Origin: a virus
DNA: 64,000 nucleotides
Direction: 5' to 3' (one strand)
Virus record (IMG/VR): IMGVR_UViG_3300046534_001281
Span: 7,814 to 71,813 of that record
The notes under the pieces are model-generated. The model did no database searches. It was not told the DNA's origin and saw only the letters and a program-made list of their open reading frames with translations. Made by a program: the position numbers and the translations under genes. Positions 27,604 to 61,996 of the stretch are shown here, piece after piece (within the stretch, counting starts at the first letter, position 1; each line of letters opens with the position of its first letter).

Positions 27604-27641
27604 GCGGAAGAAGAGGAGGACGAAAATGAATAATTAAAGAT

Positions 27642-28367
27642 ATGCCCAAGTTTAAAGAATTCTACCAAAGCTTTATCAAAGAGACTCCCGACTCTACCAT
27701 AGACTCTGCCGGAAATATAGTAGATTATGATGACGTAGGGGAGACATATACCTTCCTTATAGATAAGAAAACGGGCGAAAGTATTTGGGCCAAAACTATA
27801 CAAGATGGTCTATCGGTGACTCATAACAATTTGTATTCATGGGTTAGTTTTTCCAACACCCACGAAGATTATGAAGAATTTGGTATAGAGGTAATTAGCC
27901 ATTTAGGTAAAGATTCCACCGAACGGCTTAAGATGAATGGTGCGGGTTCCAGCAGAACTGCCGATGGGACTTTTATAGGTGGTAGGATTTTTAAAAGTTC
28001 CAACGTCATCTCGTTTTGGAATACAGAGGTTACCGTTAAAGAGCACTCAAAAATAATTAAAGATTTCATCGAAAATGACATGAAAATGAATTCCGATGAA
28101 ATTAACTACGATCTAATCGATATTGGTGGTAATAAAACTGCATCTACCTTATTCGGGACACAGGATGTTGATGAAGACAGGCTATCGCCAGAAGAGATCA
28201 AGAGATTGATGGAAATTCAACACATAGACCCATTAGCCAAGAAAAAGCTTAGACAGAATGCTGTGTTGGATGACGAAGGCACACCTAGAATGAGAGATTG
28301 GCGACACAACCTCATGAGGAGGTTGAGTGATAGTGTTGAGCATAATACAACAACTAAATTGGTATAA
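27642..28367 (+). CDS. putative internal head protein (CTS-like N-terminus), paralog A
   Basis: TAATTA-N5-ATG; MPKFKEFYQSFIKE; GRIF..ISFWNT. Confidence 0.65.
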   Translation: MPKFKEFYQSFIKETPDSTIDSAGNIVDYDDVGETYTFLIDKKTGESIWAKTIQDGLSVTHNNLYSWVSFSNTHEDYEEFGIEVISHLGKDSTERLKMNGAGSSRTADGTFIGGRIFKSSNVISFWNTEVTVKEHSKIIKDFIENDMKMNSDEINYDLIDIGGNKTASTLFGTQDVDEDRLSPEEIKRLMEIQHIDPLAKKKLRQNAVLDDEGTPRMRDWRHNLMRRLSDSVEHNTTTKLV

Positions 28368-28375
28368 TTAAAGAT

Positions 28376-29044
28376 ATGCCCAAGTTTAAAGAATTCTATA
28401 ATACCTTCCTCAAAGAATCTCCAGACACCTTCAAACATCAAGGTGAATCTATTCATTGGAAACAGGCAGGTAATGGTATAACTTTTACTCTATGGAATGA
28501 CCACGGGGTTTATGGTAATACCTCTGATGGAATTTTCCACGGACATACTACGGAGATTTTCACAGGAGAATTACCACACTCCAATTACCCCGATGCGAAA
28601 TGGTGGAACGGTGAGCCTACAAAGGACGTTAAGGAGGCTTTGAGGCAAATCAGTCACGGCTCTAAGGATGGCCTTTCGATCCACCGTGCGATGGATGGTA
28701 AGGTTCTAGCGGGTAGGGTATTTCCTAAATATAAAACTATTAGTTTTTGGAATACTGCGGAAGAAGGTTTGAGAGATGTCAAGATGTTGGAAAGTTTCTT
28801 GAAAGATATTGGTGTCGAAATGACAGATTATGCATATGATTTTATCAACAAGAAAGACCCGATCCAATTTGGACAAAACGGAGCAGCAACGAATGATGGT
28901 GATTTGTCAAAGGAAGAGATCGATGAGCTTATGCAGGTTCAACACTTTGACCCGATAGCAAAGAAAAAGCTTAGACAGAATGCTGGATACATAAAGTCTA
29001 AGCTCCCCCTTGGTTATAGCGTATTCAGTAGAAATTCAGATTAA
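28376..29044 (+). CDS. putative internal head protein (CTS-like N-terminus), paralog B
   Basis: TAATTA-N5-ATG; MPKFKEFYNTFLKE; GRVF..ISFWNT. Confidence 0.65.
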   Translation: MPKFKEFYNTFLKESPDTFKHQGESIHWKQAGNGITFTLWNDHGVYGNTSDGIFHGHTTEIFTGELPHSNYPDAKWWNGEPTKDVKEALRQISHGSKDGLSIHRAMDGKVLAGRVFPKYKTISFWNTAEEGLRDVKMLESFLKDIGVEMTDYAYDFINKKDPIQFGQNGAATNDGDLSKEEIDELMQVQHFDPIAKKKLRQNAGYIKSKLPLGYSVFSRNSD

Positions 29045-29130
29045 TGAACAATTTCTAAATTTAATTTTCTCCTAAAAAGAGTGAAAATAAACCTTGCAAA
29101 ATAAGAAAAACCATTATACTATAACGACTC

Positions 29131-29643
29131 ATGAATAAAACACTGAAAGACCTACTACAGGAGAAAGAAGAAAATGAATTTTCTATCGCGGAAGCAAAAA
29201 AACAAATCGAAAAAGAAGCTGCGGCTTTTTATGAACAATACCTTAAAGGTCGATTTAATAAGTTCCCTGAAGGAAAAGGGGCCAATATGGTGGTCACCTA
29301 TGAAGAAAATGGACACCAGTTTTGGGCTGTAAATGATATTGTATTAGAAGATGGGTATTGTATCTTTTTTGAATCAACCGCTTCGGGTATACAATATCCG
29401 GCTAATATGTTGAACCTAAGGCCAGAACTGGGCAACGGTTATCTAGGAGATGCAGAGGATTCCGAAACAGGGCCTTTTGATATCGCCAATCTTTTGGCAA
29501 GTTTGGAGAGGATTGTAGAAGAGGGATTTGCGGTCCCCGAAAACTCCAACCTAACGGCTACTGGATTTGCGGTCCCCGAAAACTCCAACCTAACGGCTAC
29601 TAATCTGGAAAAGCTTTATACCGTGTTGCATCCAAAAGGGTAA
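29131..29643 (+). CDS. hypothetical protein with 13-aa tandem duplication
   Basis: Early promoter; GFAVPENSNLTAT x2. Confidence 0.6.
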   Translation: MNKTLKDLLQEKEENEFSIAEAKKQIEKEAAAFYEQYLKGRFNKFPEGKGANMVVTYEENGHQFWAVNDIVLEDGYCIFFESTASGIQYPANMLNLRPELGNGYLGDAEDSETGPFDIANLLASLERIVEEGFAVPENSNLTATGFAVPENSNLTATNLEKLYTVLHPKG

Positions 29644-30126
29644 GCCTATTGGCAATTATATATGTTGGAATCACACAACAAGATGTGTAAAGTAATTCTG
29701 ATAGTTGTTACCCTTCTGACTCCTTCTTGTGTTAGTAGTCATATAAGGAAAGCAGAGGGTTCTGAAAATATCAGGAACCTACCGATTATTCGCAATTTGC
29801 ATTGACCGTATCAATCGCTTTGGGCATCCAATTTAATTTAATATAATGATCCTTTTTACTTGGTTTGTATCCCTTTTCGTTAAAGATAAAATATGTCAGT
29901 GGTCGGATATCAACAGTGTTGGGGTTGGCCCAATCACCAGCCGCATCTGTAAATACGGCAGAGAGAAAGCATATCTCTTCCAACATAATGATGGTAGATA
30001 TTTTCCTAGTTTTATGGACAACACACCAGAACATCCTAATTTTTCTTTTGAAGATCTGGATGAAGCAAAAGAATTTGTCGAAGACTACTTGACACAATCC
30101 AAATAACCTGCTAACATACCATAGTA

Positions 30127-31581
30127 ATGAGCCTACTAACAATCCTAAACCAAATCTCCAGCGTAAGCGGAACCAACGACAAGTTGGATATTCTCCGCGA
30201 CAACAAAGACAATGCCTTTTTGAAGGAGGTATTTTATTACGCACTCAACCCACATATTAACTTCTACCTTCAAGAGAAATCTATTCCTGAAATTGGAGTC
30301 CCTTTTGAAGATATTATTTTAGATGAGCAATCACTTGATTCATACCTTAGTCCTTTCTACAACAGAGAAGTTACGGGGAATGCAGCCAAAGAATTGCTGG
30401 CTACGCATTTCAATTATTTGTCTAATGACAATGCCGAAGTTTTGAAGCGAATCATTCTCAAAGATTTGAAATGTGGTATTTCGGGGAAGGGTGCTAATAA
30501 AGTTTGGAAAGGTCTGATTCCAGAATTTGGTTACATGCGTTGCTCCGGTCCTAATAAGGAAGGTAATATCAAATACCCCGCTATTGTGCAGACCAAAGCT
30601 GATGGTGCGTTTTGTAACGTCATCATCCGTAACGGAGTGGTTGAGTTTTTGACTCGGAATGGAAGTCCTTTTTTGTTACCAACTCTTGCAGATGTATTTC
30701 TTACACTAGGTGCGGACAACATGGTCTTTACCGGAGAGCTAACAGTTCTTGACGGTGAAGGGAAAGTTCTAAATCGTAAAACGGGGAACGGTATGGTTAA
30801 TAAGCTAATCAAAAGAGACCAAACCACAGAAAGCCACGAAGAAAAACTCAGAAATGCCAATCCAAAACAGCGGGTAAGGCTTAATGAAAAATTTGAGAAA
30901 CATGTTGGGGATCTTGAGATGATCGAGGATCACACCATTATCGACTTATGGGACGCAATTCCCCTTGATCTGTGGGAAGGTGGTTTGGATAAGACACCTT
31001 ACGTTAAAAGGATGGAGAATCTAATTTTTCATATGTTCACAAATGATCGCAAGAAGATCAATATCATCGAAACCAAAAGAGTTAATAACAAGATTCAAGC
31101 ACAAGATTTTTACGGACGAATGATTGCCGAAGGTAAGGAAGGAGCAGTTCTTAAAAACACCGACATGCCTTGGAAGGATGGCACATCCACACAACAGGTA
31201 AAACTTAAACAAGTTTTGGATTGTGATCTAGAAATCGTCGGTTGGTATAAGGGGAAGCAAGAATCGGAATTCAAGCACGGCATCGGAGGATTCAATCTAA
31301 GAAGCTCTTGTGGTCTTCTGGAGGTGAATGTCGGATCGGGTCTAACAAGAGCCGAGAGAGGCTTAGAGCTTGCCAATCCAGACAATGTGGCTGAAGGACT
31401 CCAACCCATTGCAGGATTTGACTTTGATCAATACACCGGTAAGATTGCCGCTATCCAATTCAACGAATGCGGTCAAGCCAAAGGAAAAGAAATTTGGAGT
31501 TTGTTCCTTCCAATCCTTGTAGAAGTTCGGGAAGATAAGACCGAAGCTGATGATCTGGTAAAAATCCAAAGTCAGAAATAA
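30127..31581 (+). CDS. gp30: ATP-dependent DNA ligase
   Basis: QTKADG, FTGEL, EGAVLK, VKLK, VNVGSG, SLFLP..VREDK. Confidence 0.95.
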   Translation: MSLLTILNQISSVSGTNDKLDILRDNKDNAFLKEVFYYALNPHINFYLQEKSIPEIGVPFEDIILDEQSLDSYLSPFYNREVTGNAAKELLATHFNYLSNDNAEVLKRIILKDLKCGISGKGANKVWKGLIPEFGYMRCSGPNKEGNIKYPAIVQTKADGAFCNVIIRNGVVEFLTRNGSPFLLPTLADVFLTLGADNMVFTGELTVLDGEGKVLNRKTGNGMVNKLIKRDQTTESHEEKLRNANPKQRVRLNEKFEKHVGDLEMIEDHTIIDLWDAIPLDLWEGGLDKTPYVKRMENLIFHMFTNDRKKINIIETKRVNNKIQAQDFYGRMIAEGKEGAVLKNTDMPWKDGTSTQQVKLKQVLDCDLEIVGWYKGKQESEFKHGIGGFNLRSSCGLLEVNVGSGLTRAERGLELANPDNVAEGLQPIAGFDFDQYTGKIAAIQFNECGQAKGKEIWSLFLPILVEVREDKTEADDLVKIQSQK

Positions 31582-31620
31582 CTTGACTCAAGCAGTAAAG
31601 TGTGTTTAAGTAACCCTGTT

Positions 31621-32031
31621 ATGAAAAATAAATACGGATATATTTCGCTAGAATCCCACCCCTTCTCGGAAGCGGAGGATATTTTAACCAAGGCATGCGA
31701 GGTTAGTAGATTTCATGGAAGGAAATTGATGTGGCTGAGGTTGATAAGACACGGTGGCTCGAAATTAGTATGTCCATACACAAGTAAAACCCCACACACC
31801 ATTAGACACGACCTAAGAAATCAAAAACGTGGTGGTTATACTTTTCACTGGAATATTTATTCTGAAGACGGGTCGCTACTGACCATTGACCACATCATTC
31901 CACAATCAAAAGAAGGAAGTAAAACTCACATCTCCAACCTCCAAGTTATGGAGTCTGCCGCAAATCGCGAAAAAGGCGATTTGGATGTTGATTCTAATTG
32001 GAAGGCTATTAATAATGGAACAGGCAAATAA
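31621..32031 (+). CDS. HNH endonuclease
   Basis: LTIDHIIPQSKEG..NLQVM..AN..KG; start at GTT-ATG 31621. Confidence 0.8.
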   Translation: MKNKYGYISLESHPFSEAEDILTKACEVSRFHGRKLMWLRLIRHGGSKLVCPYTSKTPHTIRHDLRNQKRGGYTFHWNIYSEDGSLLTIDHIIPQSKEGSKTHISNLQVMESAANREKGDLDVDSNWKAINNGTGK

Positions 32032-32195
32032 AAAACTCATCCTATGTTCGTATCAACTTCCTCGGGAGTCGGGTGAATATGACATTAAAAATAATTCAGG
32101 ATGCAATAACGGCGAAGGTCGAATGTATTTTGATCCTAAAACTGGCTGGGATATCCCCGACATGATTAAATCATTTTATAAAGTAATTGGTTGGT

Positions 32196-32672
32196 ATGAA
32201 AAAGAAACAATTTTTAGTTGAGATCGAAATTCCTGATGGAACAGGTGATCTGTGCTGGGACCAAGACGAAACAGGCTTGCAAGCATTTCATGATTGTGTT
32301 GCCAGTGTTTTGTGTCAAGTTAGTTTTCAACAGCTTATATCAGCACTAGCCGAAAGACAAGAGTATCAAGACTTTATCAAAAGACAAAATGATGTCAGAG
32401 ATTCATTTAAAGTAATCGAACCAATCGCAGATTCTTGTAGAACCAAATTCACCACAGAAGAAATCCGAGAATACATTAAGGGATTCACATGGGCTGATGG
32501 TGATGGCGAGGTTACTGGTGCTGATTTGCATAACGCATACCTAATGCTTGAAGACCACCAAGATGGTATTGAAGGCTACTTCGAAAGACAAGACTATTAC
32601 AAACAACAATCTGAAGAGCGTATCGCAATCCAAGAAATGGAAAGGGAGGAGCTTGAGGATGACTATATTTAA
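32196..32672 (+). CDS. hypothetical protein
   Basis: ORF in operon. Confidence 0.55.
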   Translation: MKKKQFLVEIEIPDGTGDLCWDQDETGLQAFHDCVASVLCQVSFQQLISALAERQEYQDFIKRQNDVRDSFKVIEPIADSCRTKFTTEEIREYIKGFTWADGDGEVTGADLHNAYLMLEDHQDGIEGYFERQDYYKQQSEERIAIQEMEREELEDDYI

Positions 32673-32687
32673 AACAAAAATACAAAA

Positions 32688-33092: not shown

Positions 33093-33125
33093 GATACTTC
33101 ATTATTGAAATAGATAATTAACATT

Positions 33126-33914
33126 ATGAACACAAATAATTTTGACAAAAAAATAAAGAGCATTTTCGAAAATGCTATAGCAACAAGGGACCATACCATC
33201 GAATTGTTTAAAGACACTAGAAGTGGGCGTAAGCTTTCTAAGAAAAAGGCTCAAGAGATTTTTAGTAATACCATTTTAGCTGAATCTGTTTTTAACGTCC
33301 AACTATATGAGGCGGCAGAAACTAGTGATATCCAATTCGAAATCTCAGAACCCGAAAACCCAAATATAGAGTTGTTGGAGTTCTTTGCTGAATCTCTAAG
33401 AACAACTTACCGAGCATTTACACTAGAACAATACACTGTCGAAGAGATGAAGGCTTTTAGAGTATTTGTTGTTTCGGTTGGCGGCGAAATTAAAGAAGCT
33501 GGTTTTGCTTTGAAACCTTATAACGGGGGTGCTCATAGTGAAGTTGTTGCGGTTCATAAAAACCCGTTGTCAGGAAATATTGGTAAAGTTGCCGATGTAT
33601 TCATGAAGGAATCCAAGAGGGAAGGTGGTAAATTTTTAGACCATTTTGATGGGCCACTTTCGAACATTTATGATTTGAATGGATTTAGTGTCTATAAAAT
33701 ATACGAATGGGATGACCAGTATATGCCCGATGGTTGGAACAAGTCAGAAGAAGCAATTAATATTCGTGAACAAAAAACCATTTATAGTCCCTTTGTAGGT
33801 ATTGAAGATGCGGATATTAAGATTGACTACTATAGTTTCAAAGGGTTTTCCTTCGAAAGGAAGTTCGCCCAATACAGAACTGGTGCGGTTGACGTTGTAG
33901 CCCGAAAGATCTAA
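33126..33914 (+). CDS. late GNAT-like protein, putative internal head protein
   Basis: TAATTA-N5-ATG; N-term FDKKIKSIFE; GGKFLDHFDG.LSNIY..NGF..WDDQYMPDGW. Confidence 0.5.
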   Translation: MNTNNFDKKIKSIFENAIATRDHTIELFKDTRSGRKLSKKKAQEIFSNTILAESVFNVQLYEAAETSDIQFEISEPENPNIELLEFFAESLRTTYRAFTLEQYTVEEMKAFRVFVVSVGGEIKEAGFALKPYNGGAHSEVVAVHKNPLSGNIGKVADVFMKESKREGGKFLDHFDGPLSNIYDLNGFSVYKIYEWDDQYMPDGWNKSEEAINIREQKTIYSPFVGIEDADIKIDYYSFKGFSFERKFAQYRTGAVDVVARKI

Positions 33915-34819: not shown

Positions 34820-35311
34820 ATGAACGATAAAACACCACAACGTCTCCCGATCTCAGCCGCAAACCGACCAGTGGAGGTCATTAGCTATTGGAAATCCACT
34901 GGGGGATTACTGTTAAACCCCCCTTATCAAAGAGGGGATGTTTGGGGTAAAATTCGCCAAAGAAATTTGATAAGGTCCGTTATTATAGGCATTCCGATTC
35001 CAGCAATTATTATTAATGACCGAGCGAGGGCTGGGTGGGACGAACTAATTGATTGTGCGGTAATCGACGGAAAGCAACGCATGACCGCGATTTTGGATTT
35101 CTTAGAAAGTAAATTGGAAGTGCCCGCTTGTTGGTTCGGTCTTGGGGATGGTAACATGCTGTTTAAAGACCTCCCTATTGGTCGTCAGCGATGTTTTAGG
35201 AGCATACCAATACCCTTTGCCGAAGGTCAATTAGAGAGCTTAGAGGCGGAACAAGAAGTGTTTGAGCTTGTTAATTTCGGAGGAGTGCCGCAAGGGGAGA
35301 GTGATTTTTAA
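34820..35311 (+). CDS. stand-alone DUF262 (ParB/Srx-like) domain protein
   Basis: PPYQRGDVW, IPIPAI, VIDGKQR, FELVN. Confidence 0.85.
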   Translation: MNDKTPQRLPISAANRPVEVISYWKSTGGLLLNPPYQRGDVWGKIRQRNLIRSVIIGIPIPAIIINDRARAGWDELIDCAVIDGKQRMTAILDFLESKLEVPACWFGLGDGNMLFKDLPIGRQRCFRSIPIPFAEGQLESLEAEQEVFELVNFGGVPQGESDF

Positions 35312-35369
35312 ATAAACTCATTTTAATCTGGACAAGGTAGCTTTAATAGGCTACCTTGTCTTCGTTATG
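35309..35369 (+). repeat. stop-promoter-start cassette, copy near-identical to 36564-36625
   Basis: TAA-ATAAACTCATTTTAATCTG-GACAAGGTAGC-tttaatag-GCTACCTTGTC-TTCGTT-ATG. Confidence 0.9.
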
Positions 35370-36566: not shown

Positions 36567-36625
36567 AATAAACTCATTTTAATCTGGACAAGGTAGCTTT
36601 AATAGGCTACCTTGTCTTCGTTATG
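36564..36625 (+). repeat. stop-promoter-start cassette
   Basis: Direct repeat of 35309-35369. Confidence 0.9.
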
Positions 36626-36829: not shown

Positions 36830-36885
36830 AATATCCCATCTTAATTCTTGACAAATAACGAAAAATAGAATAAGTTCTAATCGTT

Positions 36886-37227
36886 ATGAGAAACAACCTA
36901 CTAGCCAAAGATCGCAAGAGAATCAACAACATCCTTGCCAAGAATGATTTCACTTCAGGTCGTAACCGCTCAAAGTCCGTCTGTGGCGTTATTTCGGTCC
37001 TTACAGAGCTTTTGTCTGATAATGGTATCAGCTTAGACATGATCACTGGAGACCAGCTACTAGCCTCTACGGGGACTCTACGGGCTAGTTTTCGCCCAAC
37101 CCATACGGAACCATTCGAGGAACATCCTCAGTTTGAAAATAGCATCGTTTCTTTCTCTTGGCACACTGATCCTAGAGATGGTCTGGTTGACCTTTCCAAG
37201 GCTGAAGTTGTCGCATACCTTTCCTAA
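36886..37227 (+). CDS. early hypothetical protein
   Basis: Early promoter GTT-ATG; C-term EVVAYLS. Confidence 0.65.
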   Translation: MRNNLLAKDRKRINNILAKNDFTSGRNRSKSVCGVISVLTELLSDNGISLDMITGDQLLASTGTLRASFRPTHTEPFEEHPQFENSIVSFSWHTDPRDGLVDLSKAEVVAYLS

Positions 37228-38991: not shown

Positions 38992-39011
38992 AATAAAATA
39001 ACTTTTATCTA

Positions 39012-39041
39012 GACAAGGTAACATTAACGTGTTACCTTGTC
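39012..39041 (+). promoter_or_regulatory. palindromic early promoter cassette
   Basis: GACAAGGTAACA-ttaacg-TGTTACCTTGTC. Confidence 0.8.
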
Positions 39042-39047
39042 TTCGTT

Positions 39048-40059: not shown

Positions 40060-40113
40060 TAAAGGCAGAAAGTTCTGGACAAATAACCAAAAATAGATTA
40101 ACTTCTAATCGTT

Positions 40114-40305
40114 ATGAGAAACCCAGTTAAACTTACCAAGACCGAAAACGGATACACCGCAACTTTCTTCAAACTATCCCTCGGTCGTGAATACACATAC
40201 AGTATCGTTAAATGCCATGGAAAGGGATACCAGCTTGATGAATTGTATTACGAGACTCTTACCGAAATCAAAACCGACATTTTGTTTTATTCCAAAAGTG
40301 CCTAA
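40114..40305 (+). CDS. small early hypothetical protein
   Basis: TGGACA..TAACTT..GTT-ATG. Confidence 0.6.
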   Translation: MRNPVKLTKTENGYTATFFKLSLGREYTYSIVKCHGKGYQLDELYYETLTEIKTDILFYSKSA

Positions 40306-49313: not shown

Positions 49314-49973
49314 TTAATTGAGCGGATCGAAAATAACTAAACCTCCGGCGCTGTCAAAACCAAAATTTTCTTCATGGATGTCGTTTTGAGCCACCCCTTT
49401 AATCCCCATTATGGTCTGTCCAAACTCCACCACTTGGGCATATGTCCTACCATACTCCCGAAACAACGCATCTAACTCTTCAATTAAACCCCTATCTTCC
49501 GCAAAACTATCCCCTCTCATGATGTCATGAACAATTTCCTGTAAGTCCATAACTTTAGTGATAGATAATAATTCCCTACCAAATTCATAGTTACGGTCCT
49601 CATCCACCACTAGACGCTCCATAACATATAGTTCAACCTCCTCATCAAGAGAAAGACTTGCGTGTTTTAATATACGAGGGAATAAAGGATTTGATAAACT
49701 CTGCTCCTTGGAAGCAAATGTTTTGAATAGCGGATCATCAAAAGCTAGCTTAACAACATAACCGCCAGATGAACCACTATACACATCAGCAAAACTACCT
49801 CCACCGATCCATTTACCGCCAAGCTTCGTTATATATTCCGAAGCCTTATCCTTCCACTCTGAAGCACTATCAGAACTAAAACGACTCATATCAGTTAAAT
49901 CCTTAATGATCTTATTGGCCAGTGAAAGTCGCTCCTCAATCACAGTTTCGTAATAATCTTTGAATTCACCCAT
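49314..49973 (-). CDS. T7 gp0.7-like protein kinase 1 with CTS-like N-terminus
   Basis: GGGSFADVY, YVVK, YVMERL, DIHEEN, IFDP; TAAATA-N5-ATG at 49973. Confidence 0.8.
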   Translation of the reverse strand: MGEFKDYYETVIEERLSLANKIIKDLTDMSRFSSDSASEWKDKASEYITKLGGKWIGGGSFADVYSGSSGGYVVKLAFDDPLFKTFASKEQSLSNPLFPRILKHASLSLDEEVELYVMERLVVDEDRNYEFGRELLSITKVMDLQEIVHDIMRGDSFAEDRGLIEELDALFREYGRTYAQVVEFGQTIMGIKGVAQNDIHEENFGFDSAGGLVIFDPLN

Positions 49974-50936: not shown

Positions 50937-51242
50937 ATGGACAGCACAAAAGCCAAAAAACTAATCAAAGATAATGGTGGCTCTGTATTTAAGACAGAAG
51001 ATGGATGGAGTGCAAGGCTCGCCACTTCAGATGAGTATGAACTTTTCACAGACCGCGAATTGATCAAGGTTGCTAGAGATTACTATACTTCGGAAAACAT
51101 CCGAAGCTATAAAAAATACGTTAAACAATTCGGAAGAAGGAAAAACCGCAGAGCCACTAGGGATGCTATCGCCCACGAAAACTTCGAGTCTATTCCCCCA
51201 AATAAACGGACCAAAGATGAGGATGTCTGGGGCTGGGATTAA
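50937..51242 (+). CDS. basic late hypothetical protein
   Basis: TAAATA-N5-ATG at 50937. Confidence 0.55.
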   Translation: MDSTKAKKLIKDNGGSVFKTEDGWSARLATSDEYELFTDRELIKVARDYYTSENIRSYKKYVKQFGRRKNRRATRDAIAHENFESIPPNKRTKDEDVWGWD

Positions 51243-51880
51243 GAAATCGGGTCGAATATAACCAGACCACCTTCGTTATCAAATCCGAAGTTTCCGCCAT
51301 GTGCATCATTTCTGGTGTTTCCGACTATCTTACTCAGATGCATTGCAAAGTCTCTCAAATCATCATAGCTCCGGTTCACCTGTTTTAAAACAGCATCAAC
51401 CTTATCGATTTGATCTCGGTAAAGATGTCCACCTTCAGCCAAACGAGATATGATGCCCTTTAAATCCATACCAATCTCTTCTTTAAGAGTGTCGATCAAT
51501 TTATAATTGAAGTCACGGTCAACCTTCAACCTCTGGATAATATAAACACCGATTGTTGTTGTGTCGATTTTGTATTGTTTTCCGTGTAGGATTTTAGGGA
51601 AGATTGGGTTAGCTATACCGCCAATACCTTCAAAGAATTGGTGGTAACGTCTATCGTCTTCAGATATCCTAACAACATAACCACCTGTCTTGCCGCCATA
51701 GACATCAGCAAAAATTCCACTGTCAATGTGTTCACCTTTACTAGACAGCAATCCCTCCATTTGTTTTATAAATTCTGCCACATTAGATTGGTCTAGATTG
51801 TCAATCTCTTCTACAATATGGCTTGCTATGTCAAGCCTTTCCTCTACTAGATTTTGATAATATGTCTTGAAAGAACCCAT
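51239..51880 (-). CDS. T7 gp0.7-like protein kinase 2 (Lys-to-Arg variant) with CTS-like N-terminus
   Basis: SGIFADVY, YVVR, DAHGGN, IFDP; TAATTA-N6-ATG. Confidence 0.75.
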   Translation of the reverse strand: MGSFKTYYQNLVEERLDIASHIVEEIDNLDQSNVAEFIKQMEGLLSSKGEHIDSGIFADVYGGKTGGYVVRISEDDRRYHQFFEGIGGIANPIFPKILHGKQYKIDTTTIGVYIIQRLKVDRDFNYKLIDTLKEEIGMDLKGIISRLAEGGHLYRDQIDKVDAVLKQVNRSYDDLRDFAMHLSKIVGNTRNDAHGGNFGFDNEGGLVIFDPIS

Positions 51881-52437: not shown

Positions 52438-53097
52438 ATGAGTATATTAATACCTTGGAGTGGCGGATTGGATTCGACCAAGCTGCTCATTGATGCATTG
52501 GCTGCTGGCCATACCGTCTATCCAGTCTATTTTGAATGTAAAAACAACGTTGCCAAAACCAAGAAGGAAAAGTCGGCAATCAAAAAGATCCACAAGTCTT
52601 TGATGAAACGTTATAAAGATACGCTCACGGATATCAAGTTCCCCGTAACTATATTTCTGAACGTATGCACGGAAGAGGTAACCTTGAAGCAACCTCCACT
52701 CTGGGTGTTGGGCATCATCTACTCAATCACTAAAGATATAGATGAAGTTCATATCGGTTATGTTCAGAACGACTGCGCCGTCTCTTGGATACAGGAAATC
52801 AAAAAGCTTTACCAATCTTACAAGCCGTTCACTTCCCTCAAGAAACTACCGAAACTAAAGTTTCCCCTTATTAAAGAATACAAGAATAGTATCTGGAAAT
52901 CATTAGAACATTATGACTTCGAGAGGCAGAACACTCATTTCTGTGAATATGGCGCGGATTGCGGGGAATGCGAACCTTGTAAGAGATACAAATATGATGG
53001 GTTGTTTGAAGTTTATAATAGGAACAAACCCTTAGCCTCAGCCATTAATTCAGTAGATCATTTAAACCCGATAGAAGAAACAATACAAATACCTTGA
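52438..53097 (+). CDS. queC: QueC-like PP-loop ATPase (7-cyano-7-deazaguanine synthase family)
   Basis: WSGGLDST; C-term FCE..CGECEPC Zn motif. Confidence 0.7.
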   Translation: MSILIPWSGGLDSTKLLIDALAAGHTVYPVYFECKNNVAKTKKEKSAIKKIHKSLMKRYKDTLTDIKFPVTIFLNVCTEEVTLKQPPLWVLGIIYSITKDIDEVHIGYVQNDCAVSWIQEIKKLYQSYKPFTSLKKLPKLKFPLIKEYKNSIWKSLEHYDFERQNTHFCEYGADCGECEPCKRYKYDGLFEVYNRNKPLASAINSVDHLNPIEETIQIP

Positions 53098-53365: not shown

Positions 53366-54106
53366 TTAACCTAATTTGGTTTGCCACTCATTCATTATAT
53401 CGTGAAACTCTTGTGTTGTCTTTGTGGTCCTGTAAGGAATGCTATCAACCTTTAGGCGACTTGTTATCTGTGAAAACTTACGTTCCGACTCAACATATTG
53501 CCAATTCACAATAGCCTCAACAACCTCATAGTTATCAACGACAACCTCATTGTATCCATATGCGGAGTCAATGAAAATGTCATGAGATGAGTAGAACTTG
53601 GATATGTTGTTCAAGAACCATGCCTCTAATGCTTTGATGTATTGATTCACATCCTTGGAACCGTCCACTATACTTTTCAAGTCGGTCTTATCTTCGATAT
53701 CCAGCCTACTATTCTTAAGAATGGTGGTAATAGGTATCCATCGCAAACCACCATTATCGGGTAGTGAACCCATATCACTCCTTCTACCAAAGAGTGCTCG
53801 CCCTTTCAAGATTAAAGCATTGCCCATACTCTGAACACCAAGAAAATTCTTTTCAAAGCTTGTGGTTGTGGATAGTTGTCTCCTTCTGGTGTTCTGACTA
53901 TCCAACACATTTATAAGACCATCCGAATCTGTGAAGTGCGCAACCAACATTGGATGGAACCAACCCAAGGCTTTTGACACAGTAGGGGTAAGCGGTAAAT
54001 TTATAGATTCCTCTTTTGAGAGATCAACAGCAGATCTTTGCCATTTAGCACTAATCTTACTTTTCTCCAAAATAAGGTCATCGTAATACTGCTTAAAGCT
54101 GGTCAT
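53366..54106 (-). CDS. putative internal head protein, ADP-ribosyltransferase-like
   Basis: TATAAATA-N5-ATG; MTSFKQYYDDLILE; AHFT, LSTT, YNEVVV. Confidence 0.5.
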   Translation of the reverse strand: MTSFKQYYDDLILEKSKISAKWQRSAVDLSKEESINLPLTPTVSKALGWFHPMLVAHFTDSDGLINVLDSQNTRRRQLSTTTSFEKNFLGVQSMGNALILKGRALFGRRSDMGSLPDNGGLRWIPITTILKNSRLDIEDKTDLKSIVDGSKDVNQYIKALEAWFLNNISKFYSSHDIFIDSAYGYNEVVVDNYEVVEAIVNWQYVESERKFSQITSRLKVDSIPYRTTKTTQEFHDIMNEWQTKLG

Positions 54107-54835: not shown

Positions 54836-55498
54836 TTAAGAGATCGGATCGAAAAACACCAATCCACCAGAAGAGTCCAAACCAAAGTTTTCATGATGCA
54901 GGTCATTCTCATGATGACCGGTGATCTTGAAAAATAATCTGGCGAAATCATAGAATTCATCAAAAGTTCTATTATACTTCTCAAAGAATGCATCGATCTG
55001 ATCCTGTTTACCAAGAGACAGGTAATAGTATTGTTTCTTCAGTATATTCTCTATAAAATCTTCGAACCCATACTGTGATCCGGTTATATCCTCAAGCTCT
55101 CCAAGAATTGCCAAGTTTCGATTTTCGCTAACAACAAGACGCTCCAGAACATAGATGTCCATCATACGCTCCAACTGAATAGAGCGATGTTCCACTATCT
55201 TTGGAAGGAATGGATTATCATCGCCTTGAATCCCTTTATAGAATTTTCTAAATGCGGTATCGTTATTGGCAATCTTCACAACATAACCACCAGATTCACC
55301 ACCATAGACAGAAGAGAAGAAACCTTTACCTAAAAACTTACCACCCGCCTCCTTCAATATTGCTTCGGCTTGATCCATGAATTCATATTCGTGGTCTGTT
55401 TGTATATTGGATAGTTCATCGGCAATAGCAGTTGCAATGGATCGCTTTTCTAGTAAGGTGGAAAGTTGTTGATCTACAAATGATTCGAATTTACTCAT
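54836..55498 (-). CDS. T7 gp0.7-like protein kinase 3 with CTS-like N-terminus
   Basis: GKGFFSSVY, YVVK, YVLERL, DLHHEN, FFDP; TAATTA-N5-ATG at 55498. Confidence 0.8.
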   Translation of the reverse strand: MSKFESFVDQQLSTLLEKRSIATAIADELSNIQTDHEYEFMDQAEAILKEAGGKFLGKGFFSSVYGGESGGYVVKIANNDTAFRKFYKGIQGDDNPFLPKIVEHRSIQLERMMDIYVLERLVVSENRNLAILGELEDITGSQYGFEDFIENILKKQYYYLSLGKQDQIDAFFEKYNRTFDEFYDFARLFFKITGHHENDLHHENFGLDSSGGLVFFDPIS

Positions 55499-57089: not shown

Positions 57090-57101
57090 AACTTAAACAA
57101 T

Positions 57102-57137
57102 AAAGAACCCCCTAATCATAAATTAGGGGGTTCTTTT
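57102..57137. terminator. bidirectional intrinsic terminator
   Basis: AAAGAACCCCCTAAT-cataa-ATTAGGGGGTTCTTTT. Confidence 0.9.
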
Positions 57138-57165
57138 GTTGACACCGTTAGTATAACTCAAGTCG

Positions 57166-57858
57166 TTAGAAGGATATCGGATCAAAGATAATCAAATGAC
57201 CATCCTTGTTAAAACCAAAGTTTGCACTGTGGACATCAAGGCTATCGGACTTGGTGGTTTTCCGTAATATCTCAACAAATTCCATGAGCTGTTCCAAGGT
57301 TCTGCCGTGCTGTCTCAGAACATTGTCAAAATTGCTCAATTGCTCCTCCGATAATATGTCTCTTAGGACAGCATCAATGATATCAATCAAAGTGAAATCA
57401 TCACTACGCATTTCTTTTCCCCACACCGATTGAGACGCCTTTCGTAGGAACTGCATATTAGATGATGCAGTGCTTTTAAAGTCAACCTTTAAACGTTCTA
57501 AAACATAGATGTCAATCATTAAATATTCGCTGTGCTCCAAAACAATATGTTTCTCTATCTTAGGAAACAGAGGATTGTCATATTTACCCATGTTCAAAAA
57601 GAACTGACGACCCGTGCGATCATTAACAGCAACCTTAACAACATAACCACCGCTGTCACTACCATACACATTAGCAAAATTACCCTTACCCAAATTCTCA
57701 CCACCGTGATCTTCCATTATATCGCTAACAACGGCATCAACATCATCTTTGGTTAACTCCTTGTCTGATTGCAAACTATCGCGAATCTCCGTAGCAATAG
57801 CGCCAGCAATAGATCTGCGTTCTTCTAATATTTGTTGGTAGTAATCTTTAAACCTCAT
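57166..57858 (-). CDS. T7 gp0.7-like protein kinase 4 with CTS-like N-terminus
   Basis: GKGNFANVY, YVVK, YVLERL, DVHSAN, IFDPISF; TAAATA-N5-ATG. Confidence 0.8.
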   Translation of the reverse strand: MRFKDYYQQILEERRSIAGAIATEIRDSLQSDKELTKDDVDAVVSDIMEDHGGENLGKGNFANVYGSDSGGYVVKVAVNDRTGRQFFLNMGKYDNPLFPKIEKHIVLEHSEYLMIDIYVLERLKVDFKSTASSNMQFLRKASQSVWGKEMRSDDFTLIDIIDAVLRDILSEEQLSNFDNVLRQHGRTLEQLMEFVEILRKTTKSDSLDVHSANFGFNKDGHLIIFDPISF

Positions 57859-57881
57859 TATTCTATTTAATAATTACCTTC

Positions 57882-58385
57882 ATGAAGTTACAAGCCTTGC
57901 TAGATAAAATTCTAAAAGAAGCATTCGATTCCTCAGTTGTTTATAGGCGAGATGATTGGGGAACTGAAGACGAAGAAACTGGAGAGTATATACCACACCC
58001 AAATGAGATAGCCTATTTCACCGTTGAGGGTGTGGATTACATGTGGGTGGCCAAAGAGAACCGATATAGCGACACTGTGTTCGAGATAGTGTTTGGAGTC
58101 GATAAGAAGGAGACGAACAACAGGGGAGCATCTATGATCGATATAGGCATGACCCAAACAGGCAACGCAATGTCTGTATTCTCCACAGTATTAGAAATCA
58201 CCAACGATTTCGTAGAACGCTTTGAAACCGTAATGTCAATCACTTTCACATCAAAGGAAGAGGAAGAGTCTAGAACCAGATTGTATGATACACTCACAAA
58301 AGGGGATTATATAGAAAACTTCGAATTATCAGATAAACATCTGATACACGGAGAATGGAGTTATACTATGAATAGAGTAAGATAA
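57882..58385 (+). CDS. putative internal head protein
   Basis: TAATTA-N5-ATG; N-term LLDKILKE; TGNAMSVFSTV..RTRLY. Confidence 0.6.
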   Translation: MKLQALLDKILKEAFDSSVVYRRDDWGTEDEETGEYIPHPNEIAYFTVEGVDYMWVAKENRYSDTVFEIVFGVDKKETNNRGASMIDIGMTQTGNAMSVFSTVLEITNDFVERFETVMSITFTSKEEEESRTRLYDTLTKGDYIENFELSDKHLIHGEWSYTMNRVR

Positions 58386-58393
58386 ATAGAATC

Positions 58394-58987
58394 ATGGGTA
58401 AATTCAAAGAGTTCTTCAAGGAACAATATCAGACAACAACAGTTCAAGATATCATAGATAACCTGAAGGAGGAACAAGATGACGAATGGTTCGACGAAGA
58501 TAATGGTATAGAAGAGTTTATACAAAATGTAAGCGAATCTGAATTGGAAGAAGCATTCCCAAATATCTATTCTGATTACTTCGGTGATCCATCAAAATAC
58601 AAAGGAACGGTGTATCATCACACAACAGAGGATAACAAACAGTCTATATTAACACAGGGTATACAACCATCCGATATAACCAGAGGTATATCCAATCGTT
58701 CCACAGGATCAGCAACATTCACATCAGCCGAGATTGATGAAAGCGAATCTTATGGTAATGTCATATTTGAAATAGATCTAGAAAAGGCAATAGAAATCAA
58801 CCCCGATATAACCACAGGACTGGAACCACCTATTGAAGATTCAATCAGAAGGAAGAATCTTGCTAACATATTAGAAGTGGAAGATCAAGGACAATTTGAA
58901 CCAGACTCATCAGATGGATTAAGGGAAGATACATTGGTTGTATATGGGCATATACCAAGAGAGGCAATAGAGTTGCTTGAGTTTTAA
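58394..58987 (+). CDS. putative internal head protein, ART-fold (Tpt1/DarT-like H-type)
   Basis: MGKFKEFFKE; VYHHT..ILTQGIQP, FTS, YG..FEID, GHIPREAI. Confidence 0.6.
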   Translation: MGKFKEFFKEQYQTTTVQDIIDNLKEEQDDEWFDEDNGIEEFIQNVSESELEEAFPNIYSDYFGDPSKYKGTVYHHTTEDNKQSILTQGIQPSDITRGISNRSTGSATFTSAEIDESESYGNVIFEIDLEKAIEINPDITTGLEPPIEDSIRRKNLANILEVEDQGQFEPDSSDGLREDTLVVYGHIPREAIELLEF

Positions 58988-59042
58988 CATAAGGAGAACA
59001 GCCCAATAGACCTTGGGTTATCATTAAGTATAAAATAAGAAC

Positions 59043-59528
59043 ATGAAACAATTCGATACATTTATTAAATCTATATTACAGGAGTGGGTATTACCTAGTG
59101 GTGAGATGAAAACTTTGAAACAACTGCGTGAAACTTCCGGTTCATTATACACCCGAACAGTAACGGGGGAGAACACTGTGGAACATTGGAACAAAGAACT
59201 ACCCGCATTCATAGAGAAGATGTATGAAGAGCGAGGTATTCGAGTCACAGAGGAGGAGAACGGTGTTCGCATCCATGATGGATTTAATCGCTTTGTTCGA
59301 AAACCTTTATTTGACGAGACCCCCATAGACCTCGAAGTCTATTTTGATCGTGACGGCACATTCAAAACCGTGATCGATGATAAAATATTTCATGGCCCTA
59401 AGATTACAAGGGGTGATCTAACTGGTGACGGGTTTAGTGTCAGAGGTAATGGTAATACTTTGGTGTATAAACTGAAGAACTTAGAACCCAAACCTGAGCC
59501 TGTAAAAAAAGGTGAGTGGTGGGAATAA
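59043..59528 (+). CDS. putative internal head protein
   Basis: MKQFDTFIKSILQE; AAAATA-N5-ATG. Confidence 0.55.
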   Translation: MKQFDTFIKSILQEWVLPSGEMKTLKQLRETSGSLYTRTVTGENTVEHWNKELPAFIEKMYEERGIRVTEEENGVRIHDGFNRFVRKPLFDETPIDLEVYFDRDGTFKTVIDDKIFHGPKITRGDLTGDGFSVRGNGNTLVYKLKNLEPKPEPVKKGEWWE

Positions 59529-59616
59529 AGGATATATTACAACAATATTTATAGGGATGCCATATGAGGCAATAGAGTTGCTTGAGTTTTAACATAAGGG
59601 AACAATAAATAATAAT

Positions 59617-60111
59617 ATGGCTGAGGAAAACGATTGGATTAATATAGTTAGTGACGAGTTTAGAACTTGGTTTAACGAAACCTATAAGGATAAGCTCAAC
59701 TATAAAGAGGTTCAGTTGAAGAACGAACCTTTCGTCGGTTTCGAGTTCACAGATGCATCCACTGCACCATGGAGTGTGCAATCCACCAGTGCAATAACTG
59801 GCTATGACACTGAGCGAAAACTAGAATTTGATTCTGCGTTCCCAAACGACGACGATTCATATAATCTAGCAACGGTTATGGTTAGAAAGAAATGGGAACC
59901 GCATCCATTGGGAGACTTCAAGTCGTTCGAACCTATTGAACCCAACTTGATGGAAGGTCAGGCAAAACCAAAACTGAAAGCATTCATAGCACAGTTGATA
60001 TATGACAACAGAGAAACTATGTTGGAATATGGTAGAGATGCCCTTGAACTGTTCAAAGAGAGGCTTTCTCCAAACATAGACGAATATATAAGAACAAACA
60101 CCACGGACTAG
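59617..60111 (+). CDS. late hypothetical protein
   Basis: TAAATA-N5-ATG. Confidence 0.6.
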   Translation: MAEENDWINIVSDEFRTWFNETYKDKLNYKEVQLKNEPFVGFEFTDASTAPWSVQSTSAITGYDTERKLEFDSAFPNDDDSYNLATVMVRKKWEPHPLGDFKSFEPIEPNLMEGQAKPKLKAFIAQLIYDNRETMLEYGRDALELFKERLSPNIDEYIRTNTTD

Positions 60112-60159
60112 TTTAAAGATATACTCTAATATAAGATCACTTTAAAGTTAAATAATAAC

Positions 60160-60522
60160 ATGGGCAAATTCAAAACATTCCTAGAAGACTATAGACCAAG
60201 ACGTAGTAAGTATGCCAAGTGGACTGATATCAATGGTAAGCCTCTACCTATGAATAGGCATAAGCTTAACGATTACCTAACCCAAGATTCCTATATCAGG
60301 AGAACAAAGGACGGTGAGGAATATCACACACCATTCATACCTACCGATGGTTTATTAACCAAGGCTGATTTACAAAACATCGGAGACGAGGTTTTCTACA
60401 AGTATCTCAACGATGAACAGATAGAGCAGGTTAACCAGCACTGGTTGGAAAATTATGGAGTGACATATGAAGTAGACTATCCACCATCATCCCTTGGTTA
60501 TGAATTAGAGGATAGAATTTAA
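60160..60522 (+). CDS. putative internal head protein
   Basis: MGKFKTFLE; TAAATA-N5-ATG. Confidence 0.6.
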   Translation: MGKFKTFLEDYRPRRSKYAKWTDINGKPLPMNRHKLNDYLTQDSYIRRTKDGEEYHTPFIPTDGLLTKADLQNIGDEVFYKYLNDEQIEQVNQHWLENYGVTYEVDYPPSSLGYELEDRI

Positions 60523-60535
60523 GGTAAATAGAATC

Positions 60536-61159
60536 ATGGGCAAATTCAAAGAGTTCTTCAATGAACAACGACAGACATCTTATAAGATTATAGATGCAAG
60601 CGGCTCATATACTAATAGAGCAAGCCAACTGCTAAAAAATAAGGTAATGTTAGGTGCAGAAGGTAATGATCAATTCGGATATGCTCTAACATTAACACTA
60701 CCCAACCAAGAACTCAAAGATTACTTCGAAACTAATACTATTATATTGAGGAGGTATGATAAGTTCGAAGAAACAACAGAACCTAATAACAACAAACAAT
60801 ATCACCAACAATCATTAACCGATTCAACAGAGGTTGATTCTCTTGTAGCTGAATGGGTGGCATTCGCTAAACCCGATGATAAACAAAGAGCAATCCATAT
60901 TATCAACAGACAACCACAACTACAAGAGGATAACTTAGAAGAACATAAGGAACATTATGGTAATAGCGAGTATGTCAATATATATCGTGGTGGTGAACTC
61001 AACAAGGAAACAGCAGAGATCCTATCATTTACACTAGACCCCGATAAAACTACCATCTTCGGATCTAATAATAAGTTCACGGTAAAAAGAGAGGATATCT
61101 TCTGGACACTGTTTTCAATAGAGGATGAGGTTTGGGTTGACGTTAAATTCACTAAATAA
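60536..61159 (+). CDS. putative internal head protein, R-S-E type ADP-ribosyltransferase-like
   Basis: MGKFKEFFNE; IYRG, LSFT, EDEV. Confidence 0.6.
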   Translation: MGKFKEFFNEQRQTSYKIIDASGSYTNRASQLLKNKVMLGAEGNDQFGYALTLTLPNQELKDYFETNTIILRRYDKFEETTEPNNNKQYHQQSLTDSTEVDSLVAEWVAFAKPDDKQRAIHIINRQPQLQEDNLEEHKEHYGNSEYVNIYRGGELNKETAEILSFTLDPDKTTIFGSNNKFTVKREDIFWTLFSIEDEVWVDVKFTK

Positions 61160-61208
61160 GGTCTTGACTTGGGAATTTATTAATAAACGTGTAAGGGTAA
61201 ATAAGAAC

Positions 61209-61571
61209 ATGACCAAGTTTGATACACTGCTACTAGAAATAACCAAAAAACAAATGAATGCAATTGATGCTAAATGGAGGAAGGGTAAACAGGAACTCGC
61301 AGACACCATTGCTAAACATGAAAGAGGCGAGTATGAACATTCCGCAGAGTATATCAACAAGTATGGTATTAAGAGGGATTGGCTCATTGCTTATAAGCTT
61401 ACCAATATAACCCCTGACGACGATGGTCCTAATAGATATAACTGGGATGCATACTCTAAAGACCAGAAGCATGGTAATGATAGAGTGTTGAAAGATGCAA
61501 CAACAGAAGAAGCCAAAGCATTTGCAAAAGAGAATGGACTTGAGGTTAAGCCATCAAGCATTCTGTTTTAA
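61209..61571 (+). CDS. putative internal head protein
   Basis: MTKFDTLLLE; TAAATA-N5-ATG at 61209. Confidence 0.6.
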   Translation: MTKFDTLLLEITKKQMNAIDAKWRKGKQELADTIAKHERGEYEHSAEYINKYGIKRDWLIAYKLTNITPDDDGPNRYNWDAYSKDQKHGNDRVLKDATTEEAKAFAKENGLEVKPSSILF

Positions 61572-61588
61572 CAAGTATAAATAGAATC

Positions 61589-61996
61589 ATGGGCAAATTC
61601 AAGGAGTTCTTCAATGAACAACAAGCAAGAGTCGGTGTTCATATTAATGATAAGGTTGTTCCTTGGACAGATTGGATATTAGATGGAACCAAAACTATAG
61701 AGACTCGCAATACCAATTCCCTTAAGAGTTTAATAGGACATAGAGTTGGTATTATAAGAACTGGTGTTAAAGGCGGGGCAGCATTGGTGGGATATGTTAC
61801 AATAGGAGAACCCTTGATATATAGAACCATTGAAGATTTCAATGAGGATATAGAGAAGCATAGAGTTGATACAAACTATAAAGGATTCGAGTTTAGAGAT
61901 ATGAAGTTCGGTTATCCTATGTTAAAACCAGAAAGAATCGAACCAGTCTATGGTATACCATTCAAAGGTAATATGGTGACTCGACCTTTGATGTAA
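61589..61996 (+). CDS. ASCH-domain protein with CTS-like N-terminus
   Basis: PWTDWILDGTKTIETR, LVGYVTIG; TATAAATA-N5-ATG. Confidence 0.75.
   Translation: MGKFKEFFNEQQARVGVHINDKVVPWTDWILDGTKTIETRNTNSLKSLIGHRVGIIRTGVKGGAALVGYVTIGEPLIYRTIEDFNEDIEKHRVDTNYKGFEFRDMKFGYPMLKPERIEPVYGIPFKGNMVTRPLM

Follow-up and report, generated by a model that had tools for sequence, protein, structure and literature searches.

The subject of this analysis is a 64,000-nt window (bases 7814-71813 of the single 71,813-bp virus contig IMGVR_UViG_3300046534_001281 from IMG/VR) in which 13 genes from nine otherwise unrelated cargo families begin with a similar short N-terminal leader; the contig comes from an uncultured, distantly T4-like phage. 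We consider it probable (roughly 0.65) that this shared N-terminus is a capsid-targeting sequence (CTS) of the phage T4 type, i.e., that late-made cargo proteins dock through it on the prohead core, are trimmed after a Glu by a Peptidase_S77 protease, and are packaged and ejected into the next host. Capsid-borne proteins act before any phage gene is read and therefore provide a first answer to restriction and other immediate defences. Few of them are known, as both a cultured phage and virion proteomics are required to find them; should the tag function as it does in T4, packaged effectors of uncultured phages could be recognised from their sequence. Positions are given in window coordinates, genes are named by their start position (with a minus sign for the minus strand), and papers are cited by PMC or DOI number for statements found in excerpts of them.

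The leader appears to be a short amphipathic peptide that is aromatic at positions 4 and 7 and has a hydrophobic-x-Glu end (consensus of the 13 leaders: M-x-x-[F]-[KDE]-x-[FYL]-hydrophobic…hydrophobic-x-Glu). Phe occupies position 4 (position 3 in 57858-), F, Y or L follows three residues later in 13/13, and every leader closes with [LIVF]-x-E or -E-E between residues 9 and 17. In the following, an arrow marks the predicted cut and the letter behind it the first mature residue. On the plus strand, the leader genes are 27642..28367 (241 aa, MPKFKEFYQSFIKE↓T) and 28376..29044 (222 aa, MPKFKEFYNTFLKE↓S), two paralogs (37% identity) whose cargo has no family; 58394..58987 (197 aa, MGKFKEFFKE↓Q), with a cargo of ADP-ribosyltransferase (ART) fold that is Tpt1/KptA-DarT-like; 59043..59528 (161 aa, MKQFDTFIKSILQE↓W), 60160..60522 (120 aa, MGKFKTFLE↓D) and 60536..61159 (207 aa, MGKFKEFFNE↓Q), with cargos without family; 61209..61571 (120 aa, MTKFDTLLLE↓I), whose start is an internal ATG after a TAAATA box in an open reading frame (ORF) that at its longest begins at 61125; and 61589..61996 (135 aa, MGKFKEFFNE↓Q), with a weakly ASCH-like cargo. 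On the minus strand, 49314..49973 (219 aa, MGEFKDYYETVIEE↓R), 51239..51880 (213 aa, MGSFKTYYQNLVEE↓R), 54836..55498 (220 aa, MSKFESFVDQQLSTLLE↓K) and 57166..57858 (230 aa, MRFKDYYQQILEE↓R) encode paralogous protein-kinase-like cargos, and 53366..54106 (246 aa, MTSFKQYYDDLILE↓K) a cargo without family.

These shared N-termini were first pointed out in a sequence-only reading of the window, and all 13 strong leaders were found at the starts it gave. Among 119 genes called crudely across the whole 71.8-kb contig, a strict Met-anchored regular expression (regex) matched 8, compared with a mean of 0.1 and a maximum of 3 in 1000 within-protein shuffles, while the unanchored leader core occurred internally 7 times in 21,773 aa. 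When BLASTP was run without the first 20 residues (E ≤ 1), it linked just 27642 with 28376 and the four kinase-like genes (49973-, 51880-, 55498- and 57858-) with one another; the 13 genes therefore represent nine unrelated cargo families, in line with the earlier description of the cargos as unrelated. In both AlphaFold 2 (AF2) models generated (49973- and 58394), the leader formed a low-confidence N-terminal helix preceding the fold.

The T4 CTS and the internal proteins (IPs) that carry it have been known since 1996 (Mullaney & Black 1996, via PMC9026906 and PMC3012670), and diverse IPs stand behind a conserved CTS in T-even phages (PMC3012670, PMC9026906). In the T4 record, IPI starts MKTFKEFTSTTTPVSTITE↓A (MKTFKEF…ITE↓A), IPII and IPIII start MKTYQEFIAE↓A, Alt starts MELITELFDE…, gp22 starts MLKEQLIAE…, and gp23 contains …SFLTE↓AEIGG. 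The IP propeptides comprise 10-19 residues, of which residues 1-10 suffice for incorporation of IPIII; residues 4 and 7 mainly serve targeting and residues 8 and 10 processing, and Asp at position 10 stops processing with targeting unaffected (PMC9026906). The CTS brings all T4 internal head proteins to the scaffolding core, where gp21 then removes the propeptides (PMC5694885). The short leaders of the window fit this signal residue for residue (MGKFKEFFKE of 58394 has F4, F7, F8 and E10), and FKEF at positions 4-7 of IPI recurs in MGKFKEFFKE and MPKFKEFYQSFIKE. In the long leaders, hydrophobic-x-E is reached only at residues 12-17, comparable to residue 19 in IPI. Unrelated cargos behind a conserved tag and a gp21-family protease in the genome complete the likeness. 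The two systems also differ. At least 13 tagged genes lie in a 72-kb fragment here, compared with three IPs and Alt in T4. Most of the cargos measure 120-246 aa and some resemble enzymes, whereas those of T4 are small basic proteins. Leaders range in length from 9 to 17 aa; their genes are dispersed over both strands among early genes; and a late-type box abuts the ATG, with mRNAs that are probably leaderless.

The presumed processing enzyme is encoded in the same window. The gene at 15413..16087 (plus strand) matches Peptidase_S77, the prohead protease family of T4 gp21 (3e-18, 66.5 bits, cut-off 27), and its product is 30% identical to T4 gp21, with ELNHP and GVSSRGLG of T4 aligned with EMEHP and GKSSRALG, motifs that we take to hold the catalytic His and Ser. 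The gp23-like major capsid protein (20173..21720, plus strand), identified by tblastn and by alignment with T4 gp23, is a further difference from T4, as it is just 28% identical to gp23 (E 1e-41); its best matches among 2,584 phage records were cyanomyoviruses (tblastn, ~30-32% identity). Its candidate maturation site, VIGE73↓S, is located roughly at the T4 gp23 cut. A further hint at a cleavable leader is that the small leader protein 19189-, which contains a copy of the capsid protein stretch directly behind this site, aligns its leader end, LEE↓M, with VIGE↓S.

The leader is associated with a late-type box. TA[AT][AT]TA, 5-7 nt upstream of the ATG, precedes 12 of the 13 leader genes; a late promoter motif had been claimed for all of them, and this stood except for 59043, which has only the variant TATAAAATA. 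The leader was found in 12/31 genes with the box compared with 1/88 others (Fisher p = 1.6e-7) and in 0/21 genes with an early promoter, and the box of the leader genes is shared by those for the portal, the protease, the scaffold-like protein and the neck. TATAAATA is the T4 late promoter, and from a box so placed transcription would begin at about the ATG.

To follow the leader beyond the window, IMG/VR was scanned with a DNA pattern consisting of TAAATA, a spacer, ATG and codons for M-x-x-F-K-E-F, with nothing else selected. The pattern matched 29 stretches with a 6-nt spacer and 91 with a 5-nt spacer, 120 altogether, compared with 1 stretch for a control pattern in which four codons were permuted, which bears out the proposal that the leader can serve as a predictive tag. 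ORF and N-terminus counts rest on 109 retrieved sites (80 of the 91 listed), all of which open ORFs of 29-585 aa, mostly without a known family. Among their 78 distinct N-termini, position 8 was F, Y, I or L in 59, Glu stood at position 10 in 32 (background 5.8%, binomial p = 1e-19), and hydrophobic-x-E within residues 7-20 was present in 66, compared with 18% of internal control windows. Judged by these frequencies, the unselected leader positions behave as those of a CTS would. A Pfam match was obtained for 3 of 17 tagged proteins scanned from the 78 (E limits 0.001 for 10 proteins and 0.01 for 7), namely a P-loop kinase (AAA_33 / Zeta_toxin), a DUF6267 protein and a weak cytidylyltransferase match. 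Peptidase_S77 was detected in 8 of the 14 pattern-bearing records searched, and in 3 of the 4 that are at least 90% complete. A separate cluster of tagged genes was seen in another IMG/VR phage group (L030, at 2821-3444 and 1469-2824, with relatives L033, L047, L048 and L053), where the leaders are MRSFKEFFYE, MISFKTYLLSE (DUF6267, 3.3e-48), MKSFKLFVE (weakly cytidylyltransferase-like, 0.0011) and MKTFKEFVMQE.

Two IMG/VR fragments, G001 and G002, are related to the contig (capsid protein 69% identical; CheckV 30% and 17% complete at 70 and 39 kb, respectively). Together they contain 12 leader genes recognised by eye, all with the box, with leaders such as MQSFKEYFLTE, MISFQAYFLTE, MRHFTDYFQDPISE, MNSFKEYVKFLIE (620 aa), MSTKFNRMLHIIEE and MESFSDYFRQQALLE. 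Only 2 of these 12 have homologs in the present contig, which is no measure of turnover since all three records are fragments; G002 carries a leader-bearing homolog of 27642. With one loose regex, tagged genes amounted to 12/119 in the contig, 6/102 in G001, 2/80 in G002, and 2/229 and 7/295 in two 96%-complete S77-bearing genomes (shuffle means 0.6 and 0.8), and the present contig is therefore unusually rich in tagged genes.

Among the cargos, the four minus-strand paralogs are supported as kinase-like at the level of a fold lead. They are 33-39% identical to 49973-, and two of them match phrog_15752, the T7 gp0.7-type kinase family: 57858- over residues 34-230 (1.6e-9, with phrog_2828 at 3.1e-5) and 49973- at 4.8e-5; 51880- had no PHROG match at ≤0.001, and a Pfam scan gave no family for any of the four. 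Invariant in nine kinase-like sequences are G59, V64, Y65, G70, G71, V73, V74, D198, H200, N203 and D216, and the four paralogs keep the catalytic kinase motifs as a Gly-rich loop, GGYVVK, D198-x-H-x-x-N203 and F-D216-P; the D, N and D spacing of 5 and 13 equals, by the numbering we assume, that of protein kinase A. The 49973- model (predicted local distance difference test (pLDDT) 83, predicted template-modelling score (pTM) 0.80) gave weak Foldseek matches (E ~1e-3, template-modelling (TM) score 0.23-0.33), of which all those listed were kinases or aminoglycoside phosphotransferase, and its VIA matches were all kinases, with a best Z of 6.6 over 132 residues (root-mean-square deviation 4.4) that is below the caution line of 8. 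As the chain ends right after the DFG-like motif, the C-lobe would be atypical. The family has 8 members in a collection of 5.8 billion proteins, and the homologs outside the window carry in 5/5 cases a leader ending …E↓[RK]LS. T7 gp0.7 is an early gene product, made after entry. It shares with this family the phrog_15752 match of 57858-, the Gly-rich loop, VVK and the D-x4-N…D motifs, and it differs from the present set of four paralogs with late boxes, CTS-like leaders and chains ending right after the DFG-like FDP.

The product of 58394 is supported by modelling as an ART fold of Tpt1/DarT-like type that is not a member of the Tpt1 family. Its AF2 model (pLDDT 88) retrieved Tpt1/KptA at Foldseek ranks 1-12 (best E 7e-4, probability 1.00), followed by DarT and other ARTs, with TM scores of 0.33-0.38. 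Membership in Pfam PTS_2-RNA (Tpt1/KptA) was rejected at 16 bits (cut-off 26, E 0.013), the homolog P0010 reached 21 bits against the same cut-off, and we speak of an ART fold and assign no family because the match is below this cut-off. The domain spanning residues ~30-196 is widespread (487 representatives at E ≤ 1e-3) and is also found inside proteins of 1,500-5,600 aa, two of which (~1,500 aa) were scanned and also contain ART-PolyVal and GNAT; a tblastn search of the phage collection with the 58394 protein gave no match. T4 Alt, which is packaged and delivered with the DNA, likewise combines an ART fold with an N-terminal propeptide ending in Glu; unlike Alt, 58394 is only 197 aa and is nearest to Tpt1/KptA and DarT, which act on nucleic acids, and not to protein-modifying ARTs. 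The 620-aa tagged protein of G001 also recalls Alt, with an ART-PolyVal match (3.5e-6, 28.3 bits) under the cut-off of 31.2. A T4-type leader is present on 4 of the 150 best homologs of 58394. A different conserved start, MNWYK.AQ (M(N)WY[KR].[AS]Q…F.F), was observed on 35 of these 150 (among P0018-P0155) and may be a second delivery or packaging tag, used by another phage group for the same effector domain. Given these two sets of starts, the same domain seems to be fitted with different N-terminal tags by lineage. The T4-type tag is modular, as it stands on nine unrelated cargo families and on few homologs of this one domain, which elsewhere belongs to giant polyvalent-type proteins.

The remaining cargos gave fewer leads. 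Of the labels originally attached to the cargos, kinase-like and ART-like (58394) held, while ASCH for 61589 stayed below threshold and was rejected (17.2 bits, Pfam cut-off 21.2, E 0.0087), and a GNAT-like cargo was looked for in the window and not found, GNAT being present only in some distant homologs of the 58394 domain. A homolog of 61589 in the IMG/VR locus L032 has the leader MFTFKEFFLE and no Pfam match at 0.01. The Pfam scan of 10 cargos gave nothing above cut-off, the PDB, searched by sequence with 58394, with the 27642 pair and with the alignment of the kinase-like family, yielded no match at E ≤ 0.4, and an Atlas search with 27642 gave no lead (score ≤0.83, TM ≤0.35).

Interpreted as a T4-type CTS system, the tagged proteins would be synthesised late, alongside the head proteins, and the tag would dock them on the scaffolding core of the assembling prohead, where the gp21-family (Peptidase_S77) protease would cleave behind the leader Glu. 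The mature cargos, which would comprise four gp0.7-like kinase paralogs, a Tpt1/DarT-like ART and at least seven families without assignment, would then stay with the DNA in the head and be carried along into the next host. In that cell, ahead of phage gene expression, they could serve host takeover or counter-defence. The T4 CTS proteins IPI, IPIII and Alt act in their host (PMC3012670, 10.1101/2022.04.14.488369); IPI* blocks GmrSD, and one E. coli strain requires IPIII (same sources). The likeness to IPI, IPII and IPIII, the S77 protease and the other T4-type head genes of the contig, constraint at the peptide level, the late-type box and the recurrence with Glu10 agree with the capsid-targeting character that the sequence-only reading had assigned to the leader.

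Several points weigh against this interpretation. First, 6 of the 14 pattern-bearing records had no S77 match, including the 94%-complete G015; a gp21 homolog is thus not detectable in every phage that has the tag or a sequence resembling it by chance. Second, the DNA of the leaders 58394, 60536 and 61589 is near-identical from the box to about codon 11 (~45 nt), and the number of independent cases is therefore inflated by duplication or cassette recombination. Third, the late timing of the leader genes is predicted from one feature, the promoter-like box, and the cargo functions are leads at the level of fold only. Finally, we infer docking, cleavage, packaging, ejection and a role in the host from steps observed at the sequence level alone, and since the degraded T4 core proteins gp22, gp67 and gp68 have similar termini, a leader of this kind is no proof of delivery.

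The last point leads to the first alternative, which we regard as unlikely: the leader does target the prohead core, but most cargos are core, scaffold or DNA-condensing parts that are degraded or never delivered, and not effectors. It draws support from T4 gp22 (MLKEQLIAE), gp67 and the protease itself, all with similar Glu-ending N-termini (PMC5694885), and from the scaffold-like gene 19241 of the window, which also fits the looser regex. Seven of the cargo families have no recognisable enzyme fold, and the weaker leader gene 19189- looks structural, as its leader is followed by a copy of capsid protein residues 74-124 (51% identical) and a Lys/Cys-rich tail (KKVKCKCKKPCGCKKKKKS). However, it is not obvious what enzymes such as four kinase-like paralogs and an ART-fold protein would do in a head filled with DNA. 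Moreover, polyvalent-type proteins contain the ART-like domain together with ART-PolyVal and GNAT, and the T4 CTS proteins named above act in the host.

A second alternative is that the conserved start is a nucleic-acid element (a late promoter, initial-transcribed or leaderless-translation element, or a recombination cassette similar to the PeSL type) of which the peptide is a by-product. The gene starts of the contig make this worth considering. The distance from box end to ATG is 5 nt in 28/31 box genes, the early promoters follow TTGACA-17-TAnnnT-9 nt-ATG in 18/21, and a Shine-Dalgarno-like 4-mer is present in just 9/119 genes (examples of near-leaderless starts lie at 36846-36888, 40074-40116, 58381-58396 and 61576-61591). 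As box or promoter abuts the ATG and Shine-Dalgarno-like 4-mers are few, the mRNAs are probably leaderless or nearly so; with almost no 5' leader, the first codons could be under nucleic-acid constraint and matter for initiation. Literature titles and abstract openings contained nothing relevant on leaderless starts combined with T4-like late promoters. The three leaders that are near-identical in DNA point the same way, and cassette shuffling is documented in T4-type phages (PMC2839356).

Against an origin in nucleic-acid constraint, each conserved residue uses both synonymous codons, both in the window (F4: TTT 5, TTC 8; K5: AAA 7, AAG 3) and among 84 distinct IMG/VR copies (synonym counts F4 25/59, K5 68/16, E6 25/59, F7 65/19), which indicates that the peptide is what is conserved, and substitutions in the leader are conservative (F with Y; I, L and V among each other). 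In addition, the motif is absent from 19 other box genes and from 21 early genes whose starts are just as leaderless, the peptide is also encoded by the T4 IP genes, where the region before the gene is ordinary and no box is adjacent (T4 record), and Glu10 is enriched although it was not selected. We therefore consider a purely nucleic-acid explanation very improbable. Cassette and peptide roles may coexist, and, judging from the near-identical leaders, recent duplication or cassette exchange plays a part as well. Least credible is a third possibility, that the N-terminal helix is some other protein-level signal shared by descent and with no capsid link (for example a degron, an autoinhibitory propeptide or a handle for oligomerisation). 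In its favour, what AF2 gives for the leader is a helix, and the binding partner of that helix is a predicted one; but the cargos are unrelated, hence common descent of whole genes is excluded, and the leader both matches the experimentally defined T4 signal specifically at positions 4, 7, 8 and 10 and co-occurs with S77 protease genes.

Two further systems of packaged or co-delivered proteins invite comparison with the proposed CTS. In phiKZ, 201phi2-1 and SPN3US, many head-internal proteins are cut after Glu by a gp21-related protease, and conserved N-termini on diverged paralogs are thought to be prohead-targeting (PMC5694885). Their propeptides, however, mostly exceed 100 residues and have an A/S/G-x-E motif, whereas those described here are short and T4-like with a hydrophobic P3. 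The polyvalent proteins of phages and conjugative elements (PMC5512222) are similar in that the 58394 domain occurs in proteins of 1,500-5,600 aa and in that delivery of effector domains with the DNA is the logic proposed for both; they differ in that each effector here has a separate small gene with its own tag, and is not part of one multi-domain fusion.

The kind of system is thus already known from T4, and the new elements are the presence of this tag in a very distant lineage, how many cargos bear it and how enzyme-like they are, and the wide occurrence of tag and late box in IMG/VR with CTS-like unselected positions. If the assignments are true, gp0.7-like kinases and a Tpt1/DarT-like ART would be new relative to T4's packaged proteins (PMC9026906, PMC3012670, PMC5694885), with which the comparison was made, no search having been aimed at other phages. 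A term search of Nolan et al. 2006 (PMC1524935) found neither internal proteins nor CTS mentioned, and no CTS survey beyond T-even and giant phages was found in the literature covered, which left out supplements and most subscription journals. More broadly, the CTS could be an ancient, near-universal address label of the T4 superfamily and no special feature of T-even phages, identifiable by sequence as M-x-x-F-K-E-F-hydrophobic-x-E right after a late box. It would mark hundreds of unrelated, mostly uncharacterised proteins of uncultured phages as virion-delivered first-strike effectors, with the present phage as an extreme case; we put this forward tentatively, at slightly less than even odds. 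If it is true, metagenomes could be mined with the tag, in a practical and testable manner, for injected proteins of host takeover and anti-defence. The unit of box and leader may double as a recombination cassette that keeps the kit changing.

Weaker leaders are also present in the window, including the three that had been listed alongside the strong ones: 18947..19189 (minus strand, 80 aa, MENTKFEQLIANLEE), the protein with the capsid-like stretch discussed above, which is probably head-internal and may bind DNA, anchored where the capsid N-arm binds; 33126..33914 (plus strand, 262 aa, MNTNNFDKKIKSIFE↓N), with a late box and no family; and 57882..58385 (plus strand, 167 aa, MKLQALLDKILKE↓A), also with a late box. 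Other weak box-bearing candidates are 27097 (MSMFNWELFTEE), 2673 (MAINRDFFE) and 375- (MSNKVKSLFSQHLLSE), and a 160-aa gene upstream of the window (window coordinates -1949 to -1467, minus strand) has a leader-like start, MKRFDQIIEE↓IAG, without a clear late box. A PHROG scan gave no family for 19189-, 33126, 27097, 59617 and 23811-.

Other head and neck genes of the contig comprise a T4-type portal protein (13294..15357, minus strand; Portal_T4, 2.8e-61), a gp14-like head-closure protein (phrog_679), a gp15-like tail sheath stabiliser (Pfam) and the scaffold-like protein (19241..20131, plus strand), which starts MEKLFESLFSDQE. The latter was recognised by its position directly before the capsid gene and its late box; it had no family in Pfam or PHROG scans, and an ortholog before the capsid gene is also found in G002. 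Based on the CheckV completeness and lengths of G001 and G002, the genome is probably close to 200 kb in size, and the contig would cover about one third of it. Several DNA runs labelled ice metagenome contain the DNA of the contig, with no RNA run among those listed. A near-identity DNA search of the phage collection with two stretches of the window gave no match, and a tRNA search of the window found none.

The early genes show features of their own. Three early promoters (35327-35366, 36583-36622 and 39008-39047) enclose, near-verbatim, an inverted repeat (GACAAGGTAGC…GCTACCTTGTC) right before the ATG, and they resemble the PeSL promoter-stem-loop cassettes of T4-type phages (PMC2839356). 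Many genes behind an early promoter begin MKN, MRN or MNN (ATGAAAAAT…; 36886, 39709, 40114, 40351, 44178, 45739, 48039, 50176, 56379 and others); the opening codons of early mRNAs that are leaderless may be constrained in this way.

Two gene sets touch on host metabolism and defence. A NAD+ salvage set is encoded at 7840-9282, 11274-12245 and 12565-13092, consisting of NAMPT (NAMPT_N, 1e-25), a cytidylyltransferase-like NMNAT candidate (4.7e-6) and a Nudix protein (8e-10); it could supply a NAD+-using packaged ART or offset NAD+-depleting defences. A protein with a GmrSD_N (DUF262-type) domain (9.8e-15) and a QueC-like protein (1.8e-12), encoded at 34820-35311 and 52438-53097, hint by their domain matches at DNA modification of the 7-deazaguanine type, and both genes touch restriction and anti-restriction, the arena of T4 IPI.

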